This document shows positions 37,345 to 45,942 of a stretch of 64,000 bases of DNA, in pieces. Source of the DNA: Escherichia coli (GTDB lineage: Bacteria; Pseudomonadota; Gammaproteobacteria; Enterobacterales; Enterobacteriaceae); NCBI RefSeq assembly GCF_003334405.1, contig NZ_QOWM01000016.1, one strand, 5' to 3'. Positions within the stretch are counted from its first letter, which is position 1, and each line of letters begins with the position of its first letter. The notes beneath the pieces are model-generated. The model saw nothing but the letters and a program-made list of their open reading frames with translations, did not search any database and was not told the origin of the DNA. The position numbers were made by a program, and so were the translations under genes.

Positions 37345-39846
37345 TTACAGTTCCAGTTCATGTTGCAGCAGGCTGGCGATAGCGTCGGCAGAGGCGGCGT
37401 TAACCAGCGCGTTACGGAATTCTTCGTGCATGATGCGGCGAGCGAGGCGCGAGAAAATGCGCATATGCTGATCGCCCGCAGCGTGTTTGTTCAGGGTTAA
37501 CATAATGATGAATTGCGCTTCATCATCGCCCCAGCGCACCGGCGCTTGCAGACGCGCCACGCTGATGGTGGATTGCTCAATGTGTTCTGATTTGCTGTGT
37601 GGAATGGCAAAACTAAAGCCCAGACCGGTAGAGAAAACGGCCTCGCGCGCCCACAAGTCGGCTTCCAGTTTACGCGGATAGCGGCAGCGGCCCGCCAGCA
37701 GCAGGTTATCGGTCATGCCTTTGAGCACTTCTTCTTTGCTGCGCCAGTCGCTTTCCAGTGTGATGCACTCGGCGGTGACCAGCGGTGCGTCTTGTTGGGT
37801 CATGCGGAATTGCGCCAGCAGGTGTTCCACTTCCAGCGAAGTACGGCAGGCCATTGCCTGGTTGAGCAACTTGCGGCACTCACGGCTATCAAGTTGCGCC
37901 ATCCGAGCTTTCGCCGCCGGAATTGATGGTGCGCTCATGCTGAGTTCATCCAGCCCTAAGCCGACCAGCAACGGCAGCACGGAACCTTTCGCTCCCAGCT
38001 CACCGCACAGACCAATCCATTTGCCCTGGCGATGCACCGCTTGCACGGCGTAATCGAGCGCCCGCAAGAATGCCGGATTCAGGCTGTTGTAGTGACGAGT
38101 AACCTTAGCGTTATCGCGATCCACCGCCAGCAGATACTGCGTCAGGTCATTACTACCAATACTAAAGAAATCAATCTCTTCGCAGCATTGATCGATGATG
38201 AACATCACCGACGGCACTTCCAGCATGATGCCGAGCTGGATTTTCTCATCAAACGGAATGTGTTCGTTACGTAGTTGCTGTTTGGCTTCCGCCAGTTTTT
38301 CTTTCACCCATAAGATCTCTTCCATTGAGGAGATCATCGGGATCATGATTTTCAGGCTGCCGTGAGCGGAGGCGCGGAGGATCGACCGTAGCTGCGTGGT
38401 AAACAACGACGCGTACTCTTCATAAATACGCACGGCGCGATAACCGAGGAACGGGTTTGCCTCTGCGGGAATGTTCAGATAATCAACGGGTTTGTCGCCG
38501 CCAATGTCCATAGTGCGCACAATAATGCTGCGTCCGTTGGCGGATTCCAGCGCCTGACAAAAAATGTTGTACAACTCGCTTTCGCCCGGTGCGCTGGTGC
38601 GATCCATATAGAGCATTTCAGTGCGGAACAAACCAACGCCTTCCGCACCATTGCCGAATGCGGCCTGCGCTTCCACGGAGTGAGCGATGTTAGCGGCAAT
38701 TTCAATGCGGATACCGTCAGCGGTACGGGCTTGTTGGGTCAGCCAGACACGCTGTTGCTCACGCAGGGCGTCCTGTACGCGGGCTTCTTGCTGATAATAA
38801 CGAGCTACGGCTTCCCCTGGCTCAACCACAATCGCCCCGGCGTTGCCGTCGATATAAATCGTTTGTTGCTGCCACGGAGTAAGGGCATCAATATCCACAC
38901 CAACCAGCGTTGGAATGTTGAACGAACGGGCAAGGATCACCGTATGTGAGGTGGTGCCGCCGCTTTTGAGCAACAATCCTTTGAGGTGATTTTTATCCAG
39001 TTCGAGGAACTGGCTGGGGGTCAGTTCATCAGCCATACAAATGGCGGGCTGCGTCAGTTTGCCCGGTGCCGGGAAGCGTTGCTCACCGTAGATTTGCTGG
39101 AGTAACTGGAAGCAGACGTCGCGTACGTCCAGGGCACGTTCTTGCAGGTAGCTGCTGCTGGAACGGGAAAACTCTTCGCAAAAGTGATTCGCGCTGGCAA
39201 CAATTGCTTCGGCGCAGCTTAATCCGGCGCTGACGCCTGCCAGTAAATGTTCGCGCAGGGAAGTATCGCCAGCCAGGGATCGGTGAGCTTCCAGAATCGC
39301 GCTGGTAGCACCGTCGCTATCCAGCAGACGAAACTCAATGTTTTTCAGTACCAGCGTCAGGCCGTTTTCCAGTGCGGATTGCTCGGCGTCAACGCCTTTG
39401 GCTGCGGGAAGATTACCCAGCGCATTGAGATCTAAAGAAGAGATCGGCGTCAGAATGCCGCCTGCACTACCGCTGCACACGGTGCGGGCGCGGATAATTT
39501 GCGGATTCAGATTGGTCAGTGAAACCGGCAGTGGTTCCAGTTCGTCAGATTTAACTTCCGCCAGCGGCGCATCGCAGTGGGGGAATTCATCGCGCAGCCA
39601 TTGGCTTAAACGCTGGTGCGCTTCCTGTTCGTCGGCCCCGGAAATCAGTAACTGGCAGTTATCGCCCGCCAGCGTATCGGTGCCAATCAGCGCAAGGGCG
39701 CTTTTGGCGTTGCCCTTGCGGTCAGTGCGCAGGTTATGCCACTCAATTTGTGATGAAAAAGTATTACACAGCGTTTCAACGTGGCTTGCCGGACGCGCAT
39801 GTACGCCGTTAGGTAGCTCACAAATAAATTCCACAATCAGGGCCAT
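37345..39846 (-). CDS. ptsA: multiphosphoryl transfer protein (PTS EI-HPr-EIIA fusion) of the frw system
   Basis: ORF 833 aa [26 protein letters not shown]...; HPr-like N-terminus, EI PEP-utilising domain, fructose-type EIIA C-terminus. Confidence 0.93.
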
Positions 39847-40154
39847 TGCCTCTCTCCCGGTACGGTTTTCTGTTTACAGGATAAGAGCGCACGGCAACGG
39901 CCTGCCATGTGACAAATCTGCCAAAAGCTGGACAAATGTAATGTAACCGTCAATTTGCGACGCGTCTCACAAGACGCTGTTTTGCGGCATGCTTCCGGTT
40001 TATCGCAAGTTATGAGGCGGATCGCATTTTTGTACTGATATTACAAAAGTCCAGTAAATGGCCTTTTTATCCACTGTTTGCTCCGCCTGCGATTGCCTAT
40101 TGTTTCCTCCATCAAAAATATGGACATGGGCTTTCGCAAGCCCGGGAGCAGCTT

Positions 40155-41234
40155 ATGAATGAGTTGGTGCAGATCCTGAAAAATACCCGTCAGCATTTAA
40201 TGACGGGCGTTTCACACATGATTCCCTTCGTGGTATCGGGCGGTATTTTGCTGGCGGTTTCCGTCATGTTGTATGGCAAAGGCGCAGTGCCGGATGCCGT
40301 AGCCGATCCAAATCTGAAAAAACTGTTTGATATCGGCGTTGCGGGCTTGACGCTGATGGTGCCTTTCCTCGCAGCGTACATCGGTTATTCCATTGCAGAG
40401 CGTTCTGCGCTGGCTCCGTGCGCTATCGGTGCCTGGGTTGGTAACAGCTTTGGTGCGGGCTTCTTTGGTGCACTGATCGCCGGGATTATCGGCGGCATCG
40501 TGGTGCATTACCTGAAGAAAATTCCGGTGCATAAAGTTCTGCGCTCGGTGATGCCTATCTTCATTATTCCTATCGTCGGCACACTGATTACCGCAGGCAT
40601 CATGATGTGGGGCTTGGGCGAGCCTGTAGGGGCGTTGACCAACAGCCTGACTCAGTGGCTTCAGGGGATGCAGCAGGGCAGCATTGTTATGCTGGCGGTG
40701 ATCATGGGTCTGATGCTGGCGTTCGATATGGGCGGTCCGGTTAACAAAGTGGCCTATGCCTTCATGCTGATTTGCGTTGCTCAGGGTGTTTATACCGTGG
40801 TGGCCATCGCTGCCGTGGGTATTTGTATCCCGCCGCTGGGGATGGGGCTGGCGACGCTGATTGGTCGTAAAAATTTCTCCGCAGAAGAGCGCGAAACCGG
40901 CAAAGCGGCACTGGTGATGGGCTGTGTTGGCGTTACTGAAGGGGCGATTCCTTTCGCCGCTGCCGATCCGCTGCGTGTCATTCCTTCCATCATGGTCGGT
41001 TCAGTTTGTGGTGCAGTAACTGCGGCGCTGGTCGGTGCGCAGTGCTATGCAGGCTGGGGTGGTCTGATTGTGCTGCCGGTGGTTGAAGGCAAGCTGGGTT
41101 ATATCGCAGCAGTGGCTGTCGGAGCAGTGGTGACGGCTGTTTGTGTGAACGTGCTGAAAAGTCTGGCGCGTAAAAATGGGTCTTCGACTGATGAAAAAGA
41201 AGACGACCTGGATTTGGATTTTGAAATTAATTAA
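40155..41234 (+). CDS. frwC: fructose-like PTS EIIC component
   Basis: ORF 359 aa MNELVQILKNTRQHLMTGVSHMIPFVVSGG...; polytopic membrane protein. Confidence 0.93.
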   Translation: MNELVQILKNTRQHLMTGVSHMIPFVVSGGILLAVSVMLYGKGAVPDAVADPNLKKLFDIGVAGLTLMVPFLAAYIGYSIAERSALAPCAIGAWVGNSFGAGFFGALIAGIIGGIVVHYLKKIPVHKVLRSVMPIFIIPIVGTLITAGIMMWGLGEPVGALTNSLTQWLQGMQQGSIVMLAVIMGLMLAFDMGGPVNKVAYAFMLICVAQGVYTVVAIAAVGICIPPLGMGLATLIGRKNFSAEERETGKAALVMGCVGVTEGAIPFAAADPLRVIPSIMVGSVCGAVTAALVGAQCYAGWGGLIVLPVVEGKLGYIAAVAVGAVVTAVCVNVLKSLARKNGSSTDEKEDDLDLDFEIN

Positions 41235-44762: not shown

Positions 44763-45104
44763 ATGGCATACCTGGTGGCAGTAACCGCCTGCGTAAGCGG
44801 CGTGGCGCATACTTATATGGCGGCGGAACGGCTGGAAAAGTTGTGCCTGTTAGAGAAGTGGGGAGTCAGCATTGAAACTCAGGGCGCGCTGGGAACGGAG
44901 AATCGTTTAGCGGATGAGGATATCCGCCGGGCGGATGTTGCTCTGTTGATTACGGATATCGAGCTTGCCGGTGCCGAGCGATTTGAACATTGCCGCTATG
45001 TGCAATGCAGCATCTACGCATTCCTGCGTGAGCCGCAGCGGGTAATGAGCGCGGTGCGCAAAGTGCTTTCTGCGCCGCAGCAAACCCATCTTATTCTGGA
45101 GTAG
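44763..45104 (+). CDS. frwD: fructose-like PTS EIIB' component
   Basis: ORF 44700..45104; ATG at 44763 gives the 113-aa MAYLVAVTACVSGVAHTYMAAERLE... protein (paralog of frwB). Confidence 0.9.
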   Translation: MAYLVAVTACVSGVAHTYMAAERLEKLCLLEKWGVSIETQGALGTENRLADEDIRRADVALLITDIELAGAERFEHCRYVQCSIYAFLREPQRVMSAVRKVLSAPQQTHLILE

Positions 45105-45942
45105 TCGGTTTTTCTGTCAGTTGGCTGTGGTACTGCCGGCGATATTCCGACGGCGAGCGTTCGGTGTTTTTACGAAACAGACGGCAGAAGTAGTTGCTGT
45201 CGACAAAGCCGCAGGCGTGCGCCACTTCTTTTACCTTCAGGTCATAGCCTTTCAATAACGTCTTAGCGTGCTCCAGTCGCGTGTGATTCAGGTATTCGTT
45301 AAAACCAATGGCCCCCGTTTTTTGAAACAGGTGCGAGAGGTAATTTGGCGAAATATAAAACGCCTGTGCAACAGATTCGCGGGTAAGCGCGGAGGCATAG
45401 CGTTCGTCGATATAATCGCGAATAGCTTCAAATAGTGCCTGGCTGCGTGAGGCGGTCTGGATTTGGCTGCCAAGCAAATCGCGGCAGTGGCTAAGCAGGC
45501 TGGCGACGATAAGCCTTGCCGTTTGCTGCTCCTGCGGCTGCATTTGCATTTCATTGAGCGTTTGTAGCAGAAAAGAACCTATGCGTGGGCCGCGTCGGGC
45601 GACGTGTTGCTTCGCCAGATTTTGATATTGTTTGCCATCCCATTGCACGACGCTGAAGCCGAGTTGCTGTTTGCCAAACAGCACGCTAAAGGTAGTAGCG
45701 GGGGCTTGCCATTGTGGAAAATTCCAGCCACCAGCAGGAACGTACAGCACATCGCCGGGAACTAACGTTGCTCCAGCGCCGGTATCAACAAACTCACCTT
45801 CCAGCACAATTTCCAGCCGTGGAAAATCGACCTGATACGCAAGATCGGGCACCGGGCCGTTACTGCTGGCAAAGTAAATCTGGCGCAGGGACAGCGGGCC
45901 GTTGATCAGGCGGGAGAGCAGATAGCTGACGTCGTGATACAT
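45091..45942 (-). CDS. yijO: AraC/XylS-family transcriptional regulator YijO
   Basis: ORF 283 aa; C-terminal AraC-type HTH; 3' end overlaps the frwD 3' end by 14 nt (convergent). Confidence 0.88.
   Translation of the reverse strand: MYHDVSYLLSRLINGPLSLRQIYFASSNGPVPDLAYQVDFPRLEIVLEGEFVDTGAGATLVPGDVLYVPAGGWNFPQWQAPATTFSVLFGKQQLGFSVVQWDGKQYQNLAKQHVARRGPRIGSFLLQTLNEMQMQPQEQQTARLIVASLLSHCRDLLGSQIQTASRSQALFEAIRDYIDERYASALTRESVAQAFYISPNYLSHLFQKTGAIGFNEYLNHTRLEHAKTLLKGYDLKVKEVAHACGFVDSNYFCRLFRKNTERSPSEYRRQYHSQLTEKPTTPE

Follow-up and report, generated by a model that had tools for sequence, protein, structure and literature searches.

AraC-family regulators of sugar catabolism usually read asymmetric half-sites that are arranged as direct repeats, and the joint control of a promoter by CRP and an AraC-type activator is already a textbook mechanism. 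In CRP-assisted promoters of the rhaBAD/araBAD type, the CRP site lies near -92.5, which is among the two commonest positions for CRP sites (PMC4287617). The frw/pflDC/fsaB/gldA cluster of gut Enterobacteriaceae was long of unknown function. According to Ma et al., as cited in PMC12441222, it serves the anaerobic use of 1,5-anhydromannitol, and PflD acts on 1,5-anhydromannitol-6-phosphate, which it cleaves, after uptake by a phosphotransferase system. CRP binding in an EMSA and crp-dependent expression point to activation of ptsA-fsaB-gldA by Crp (PMC8085971), and a CRP ChIP-seq peak in ETEC has been assigned to ptsA/frwC (PMC4287617). Here, we compare the control region of this cluster with araBAD and conclude, at a probability of roughly 0.6, that it holds two divergent activator-dependent promoters of araBAD-like build, which would be co-activated by CRP and the AraC-family regulator YijO, with 1,5-anhydromannitol or its 6-phosphate as the proposed signal.

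We analysed a 64,000-nt stretch of Escherichia coli DNA (hereafter the window), whose gene content is that of the E. coli katG…yijO region. Its minus strand encodes ptsA (= frwA; 37345-39846), and its plus strand frwC (40155-41234) and then frwB, pflD, pflC and frwD. The intergenic region between ptsA and frwC spans 308 bp (39847-40154), which bears out the divergent control region that had been described in a first-pass annotation of the sequence. This region is identical to positions 4142222-4142529 of MG1655 and was found in 5,405 of 5,426 complete E. coli genomes. Both flanking genes are nearly silent in culture, with RNA-seq counts of 72 and 35 (PMC10294691). A scan of one genome per species yielded 80 FrwC-encoding loci, from Escherichia, Citrobacter, Kluyvera, Klebsiella, Raoultella, Enterobacter, Buttiauxella, Rahnella, Yersinia, Hafnia, Serratia and others. 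At 79 of these 80 loci, which are all those whose contig is long enough to tell, ptsA and frwC are divergent, and the intergenic length in Enterobacteriaceae ranges from 302 to 316 bp. For phylogenetic footprinting, 79 regions were aligned with MAFFT, and conservation was expressed as identity to the window among the 72 non-Escherichia sequences. Although mean identity over the whole region is 0.61, conservation is strongly blocky, and the centre of the region (39978-40006) is both its least conserved part (0.30) and variable in length.

CRP sites, putative half-sites and predicted promoters

CRP-like sequences were scored with a weight matrix made from 106 sites of the ETEC ChIP-seq study, with the ptsA/frwC entry left out. 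CRP site 1, TGCGACGCGTCTCACA (TGCGA-N6-TCACA, 39956-39971), matches TGTGA-N6-TCACA at 9 of 10 positions. Its score of 12.4 bits ranks second among 63,985 window positions and corresponds to the 44th percentile of the training sites. The motif TGnGA-N6-TCACA is kept at this site in all 78 orthologous regions, and the two half-sites (0.81 and 0.99) are far better conserved than the spacer (0.28), which is a footprint typical of CRP. CRP site 2, TATGAGGCGGATCGCA (TATGA-N6-TCGCA, 40011-40026), matches the consensus at 8 of 10 positions and scores 9.3 bits (rank 17 of 63,985). Its conservation pattern is less clean than that of site 1, with half-sites at 0.79 and 0.97 and a spacer at 0.75. Site 1 is predicted to serve the ptsA promoter and site 2 the frwC promoter. 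Among the ten consensus patterns tried, CRP alone fits well. A scan of the region for FNR, Cra, ArcA, sigma-54, NarL 7-2-7, PhoB, IHF, LexA and TyrR consensus sequences gave no close match; the best fits were 6/10 for FNR, 9/16 for Cra and 8/12 for sigma-54, the last with wrong spacing and in unconserved DNA.

The ptsA/frwC region has been shown in the literature to be bound by CRP, at the level of the region. The motif listed for the ETEC peak is the reverse complement of CRP site 2 (PMC4287617), and the higher-scoring, equally conserved site 1 of this published target thus differs from the motif that was listed. The peak centre, 4564670, maps to about position 39788 of the window, 59 bp inside ptsA, with CRP site 1 ~175 bp away and CRP site 2 ~230 bp away. 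A third CRP-like sequence, CGTTAGGTAGCTCACA (39807-39822), lies inside ptsA codons 9-14; it has the fourth-best CRP score in the window (11.9 bits) and is the closest of the three to the peak centre. As the peak falls inside ptsA and nearer to this third sequence, CRP occupancy holds for the region and not for each site. The best matrix score in the whole window belongs to CTTGATAGATGTCACA (16916-16931, 12.8 bits).

Reading from each CRP site towards its gene, we would place two 17-bp half-sites that begin 20.5 bp past the CRP centre and are followed by a weak -35 and a -10-like hexamer. On the frwC side (plus strand), the putative distal half-site s1, TATT-ACAAAAG-TCCAGT (40039-40055), has a conservation of 0.88 with a near-invariant TCCAG, and the putative proximal half-site s2, TGGC-CTTTTTA-TCCACT (40059-40075), one of 0.84. 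On the ptsA side (minus strand), the corresponding sequences are CATT-ACATTTG-TCCAGC for s1 (39927-39943, 0.85) and TGGC-AGATTTG-TCACAT for s2 (39907-39923, 0.81). The half-site consensus is ...ttTgTCCAg. All four are thus conserved at 0.81-0.88, compared with 0.30 in the centre and 0.61 overall, and s1 and s2 are 20 bp apart in 79 of 79 sequences on both sides. Together, they make up a 39-bp element of which one copy stands before frwC and one, inverted, before ptsA; by a count made by hand, the two 39-mers, which run in opposite orientation, share 25 of 39 positions. On a matrix built jointly from them, the frwC side scores 55.8 bits and the ptsA side 52.5 bits, and the next best score in the 64 kb is -12.6. 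No further 39-bp boxes were found upstream of yijO or in the rest of the window, nor was there a positive match in 30 kb around the paralogous ybiW-ybiY/fsaA locus. Judged by their sequence and conservation, these elements are best read as sites for an AraC-family regulator, with asymmetric half-sites of ~17 bp in direct repeat.

The predicted frwC -10, TATTGT (40098-40103, plus strand, conservation 0.95), would set the transcription start at ~40110-40111 (CA), and the predicted ptsA -10, TATCCT (39878-39883, minus strand), would set it at ~39871. In MG1655 numbering, these starts would fall at 4142485-6 and 4142246. The frwC hexamer is TATTGT in 63 of 79 sequences, the others having TAnnGT; at ptsA, TAT(C/T/G)CT is found in 61 of 79. 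Counted from its first base, CRP site 2 stands 87 nt before the frwC -10 in 79 of 79 sequences, and in 76 of 79 the distance between CRP site 1 and the ptsA -10 is constant. Other distances are less rigid: the two CRP sites are separated by 39 to 43 nt, depending on the sequence, and the length between -10 and start codon differs widely for both genes. If transcription starts 7-8 nt after the predicted -10, both CRP centres would lie at -92.5; these positions are predictions because the -10 hexamers are themselves predicted. The s2 half-sites end 22-23 bp upstream of the predicted -10, with no good -35 there. A simple sigma-70 scan detected no promoter in the intergenic region, which is expected of an activator-dependent promoter but lends no support to one either, and the searchable parts of the Kim 2012 and Cappable-seq supplements list no start site for frwC or ptsA. 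Just upstream of the predicted frwC -10, the sequence GATTGCC (40091-40097) is highly conserved in Enterobacteriaceae. It fails as an extended -10, as its TG is one base out of register, and a sigma-54 -12 element does not explain it either.

We compared this arrangement with the ara control region, read from MG1655 itself. The order of elements is that of araBAD: a CRP site, two half-sites, a weak -35 and a -10. The araBAD and frw promoters have in common direct-repeat 17-bp half-sites of the form 4 nt-N7-TCCA, of which the distal one is the better conserved. The -10 hexamer (TACTGT in araBAD) begins 79.5 bp from the CRP centre in araBAD, as it does at frwC, and 80.5 bp from it at ptsA, and the -10 elements of araBAD and frwC share the form TAnTGT. 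The frwC-side s2 and araI1, TAGCATTTTTATCCATA, share the 4-N7-TCCA register and 13 of 17 positions (shuffle P 0.006). However, this resemblance is just suggestive, since five 17-mers with at least 13 of 17 araI1 matches occur in 128 kb (both strands of the window). Several features differ. The half-site register is 20 bp here and 21 bp for araI1-araI2, the proximal half-site lies 39-40 bp from the -10 instead of 37 bp in araBAD, and the frw s1 half-sites lack the TAGC of AraC sites. The frw arrangement is doubled in mirror image and serves two divergent catabolic operons. Moreover, yijO lies 5 kb away and is convergent with frwD, whereas the regulator gene of araBAD is divergent from its operon. 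Given the predicted frw starts, both CRP sites would share the position near -92.5 with the rhaBAD/araBAD type, from which the locus differs in that its starts are predicted and that two further CRP-like sequences lie within 240 bp.

YijO and other candidate binders

The gene yijO (45091-45942, minus strand) encodes an AraC-family regulator and is the candidate for the s1/s2 binder on the grounds of linkage and domain content. Of the 80 orthologous loci across Enterobacterales, 76 have a linked yijO homologue, in line with the suspicion that the first-pass annotation had cast on it. Three of the four exceptions have too little downstream DNA, and the fourth is a deletion. The linkage holds even at loci without pflDC. 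In nine Kluyvera and Pseudocitrobacter loci, yijO follows frwC after ~0.75 kb, which means that pflDC must be absent from the cluster there. Twelve loci from Klebsiella/Raoultella and related genera carry a yijO-like gene that is 54-57% identical and lies further downstream on the other strand; in this group, the boxes and the ptsA -10 region are the most divergent. As yijO stays linked to the locus, YijO is the likely binder of s1 and s2.

In YijO, the domains recognised by Pfam are just those of the C-terminal helix-turn-helix (HTH_18, HTH_AraC). Over the DNA-binding domain, identity to AraC is 39%, and the recognition helices are alike (SPNYLSHLF in YijO and SPSRLSHLF in AraC; YFCRLFRK and YFSRVFKK). 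In a structural model (mean pLDDT 84), YijO has a beta-rich N-terminal domain, then a long helix and a double helix-turn-helix domain. The model matches CsvR, Rns and ToxT over the full length, and the best hits of YijO among solved structures include the AraC DNA-binding domain. At the level of a model, this confirms a two-domain AraC-family build. As the N-terminal domain has weak cupin matches alone, the ligand of YijO cannot be read from the structure. YijO was listed as uncharacterised in 2016 and as a hypothetical regulator or one of unknown function in 2018 and 2022, and the literature searched gives no description of how the cluster is regulated. The 3′ ends of the convergent genes frwD (ends at 45104, plus strand) and yijO (ends at 45091, minus strand) overlap by 14 bp, and the pair is on a published list of candidate excludons (PMC12288877).

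The boxes might instead be bound by a regulator other than YijO, be it AraC through cross-talk, PhoB or an unlinked factor, or they might be repressor sites. We consider this unlikely, but it is the only one of four rival explanations that keeps appreciable weight. In Rahnella perminowiae, a ~2-kb deletion, as judged against a sister Rahnella species (locus L079, 11962-13956), has removed yijO and left a 27-residue remnant (locus L069, ~11950-12110). The CRP sites and activator boxes are intact in this natural yijO-minus genome despite the loss, which speaks for another binder. Across genera, however, the boxes are locus-specific and travel with yijO. The likeness of the frwC-side s2 to araI1 would fit AraC itself, but s1 lacks TAGC and the literature searched contains no AraC regulon report for the locus. 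Weak PhoB ChIP signals from two independent studies overlap the ptsA-side box at 39908-39925 (PMC3465305) and 39937-39954 (PMC10294691), which are different proposed Pho boxes. Yet no listed enrichment value is lower than that of the PhoB signal, and frwC and ptsA show unchanged expression in the PhoB comparison (PMC10294691).

Relative to its gene, each box points the same way, as RNA elements would also have to do if they belonged to long 5′ leaders whose promoters lay in the centre of the region. Such promoters would need the centre (39978-40006), which is nevertheless the least conserved part and of variable length. The boxes have neither a stable fold nor an Rfam match, and their rigid spacing to the CRP sites and -10-like hexamers is a property of DNA. 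An RNA role for the boxes is therefore very improbable.

The two inverted repeats

The first-pass annotation had drawn attention to two inverted repeats in the region as candidate binding sites of a dedicated regulator. The GC-rich repeat 1, gcgacgcgtctcacaagacgc, exists, but at 39957-39977 rather than 39958-39979, and it does contain the self-complementary 8-mer GACGCGTC (39959-66). It overlaps the imperfect palindrome TGCGACGCG/CGCGTCTCA (39956-69), and its stem, GCGTCT-caca-AGACGC (39962-39977), has arms at 39962-67 and 39972-77 around a 4-nt loop. The GC-rich palindrome is held by CRP site 1, and the 5′ arm of the stem consists of the spacer and right half-site of that CRP site. The 3′ arm, AGACGC, is conserved at 0.41. 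In the 72 non-Escherichia orthologues, never more than 4 of the 6 positions are complementary, and the stem is confined to the Escherichia lineage. Folded as RNA, repeat 1 is no more stable than its shuffles (z = -0.9). Read from the alignment, repeat 1 consists of CRP site 1 and an adjacent hexamer that is not conserved, with no operator of its own. The earlier statement that neither repeat fits CRP, FNR or Cra does not hold for repeat 1 and CRP, whose consensus it fits at 9 of 10 positions.

The AT-rich repeat 2, described as TTGTA-N7-TACAA at 40029-40047, is likewise present, at 40030-40046. Its arms extend to TTTTGTA (40028-34) and TACAAAA (40042-48), giving TTTTGTA-N7-TACAAAA (40028-40048). 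This repeat abuts CRP site 2; it is made up of the T-tract that flanks that site and the start of the frwC-side s1, which holds the right arm. TTTT is conserved at 0.97 and the right arm at 0.96, but the inner GTA only at 0.41, and the inner GTA/TAC pairs are complete in only 10 of the 72 non-Escherichia orthologues. The repeat scores 1.0 bit on the CRP matrix, and its fold has just -4.8 kcal/mol (z = -2.5 compared with shuffles). As its arms belong to two independent conserved elements and the inner pairing is mostly lost, repeat 2 reads as a coincidence, namely a chance overlap of the T-tract next to CRP site 2 with the ACAAAA that belongs to s1.

Statistically, neither inverted repeat stands out. 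Of dinucleotide shuffles of the region, 20% contain a perfect repeat whose 7-nt arms enclose a loop of up to 12 nt. Repeats with 6-nt arms number 4 in the region compared with 1.2 expected (P = 0.05-0.07), and their density over the whole window is 1.5 per 308 bp. We weighed the reading that both repeats are operators of a symmetric dimeric, dedicated regulator such as YijO. In its favour, both occur in E. coli, repeat 2 has a better fold than its shuffles and 6-nt repeats are mildly enriched, but the arms are not conserved as pairs although flanking elements are conserved at more than 90%. In addition, the CRP site fully accounts for repeat 1, and direct-repeat, asymmetric half-sites are what AraC-family sugar regulators generally use. 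In the footprint, neither palindrome is preserved as a repeat across the 72 non-Escherichia orthologues, which speaks against the palindromes as such. This lack of conservation largely refutes the symmetric operators, and we hold them to be highly unlikely. What stands of the earlier proposal is that conserved, locus-specific elements exist that would suit a dedicated regulator, but they are 20-bp direct repeats and not the inverted ones, and the original two-palindrome observation is largely explained away.

Least probable of all, and rejected on fold, conservation and position, is an RNA hairpin at repeat 1 that would act as an intrinsic terminator or attenuator (GCGTCT-CACA-AGACGC, then TGTTTTG): a scan for terminator-like sequences flags 39962-39977 on the plus strand, but the stem is only 6 bp long, the T-run that follows the poorly conserved 3′ arm is conserved at 0.33, the hairpin would sit between divergent genes and upstream of both predicted promoters, and a search of 39600-40400 at a permissive threshold gave no Rfam match.

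A third inverted repeat, GGGCTT-tcgc-AAGCCC (40128-40143, plus strand), lies in the predicted 5′ leader of frwC, directly before the Shine-Dalgarno sequence GGGAG. Unlike repeats 1 and 2, it shows compensatory changes across genera (for example AGGCT/AGCCT, GGGCG/CGCCC and GAGCG/CGCTC). Paired cells amount to 83.5% compared with 74.9% in shuffles, and the covariation score is 0.27 compared with 0.13, with 0 of 500 shuffles as high and all slid controls lower. RNAalifold returned no consensus structure for this repeat, and the fold of the E. coli sequence does not surpass those of shuffles. The repeat may form a leader hairpin that acts on mRNA stability or translation.

Proposed regulation of the anhydromannitol pathway

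In the araBAD-like mechanism that we propose, CRP site 1 would serve ptsA-fsaB-gldA and CRP site 2 would serve frwCB-pflDC-frwD. Both promoters would be weak sigma-70 promoters co-activated by cAMP-CRP and YijO. A YijO dimer on s1 and s2 (approximately -72 to -36) would recruit RNA polymerase via its promoter-proximal subunit, and cAMP-CRP at approximately -92.5 would assist, as at araBAD and rhaBAD. We infer activation rather than repression. When uninduced, AraC-style looping between the distal half-sites, which are ~96 bp apart, is conceivable. The signal would be the substrate of the encoded pathway, namely 1,5-anhydromannitol or its 6-phosphate; FsaB and GldA reportedly complete this pathway. 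The half-site consensus of YijO would be approximately WTT-ACAWWWR-TCCAG and TGGC-N3-TTTR-TCC, forming two mirror-image araI-like sites.

Whether YijO is the dedicated sensor-activator of this 1,5-anhydromannitol ('anhydroglycolysis') pathway, switching on both operons from four half-sites with CRP at -92.5, we regard as evenly balanced. The type of mechanism, CRP with an AraC-type activator, is familiar; what is new is a predicted map at base resolution of two CRP sites, four YijO-type half-sites and two -10 elements. Overall, this map supplies a candidate recognition motif for YijO and a hypothesis for the uncharacterised regulator of a newly assigned pathway.
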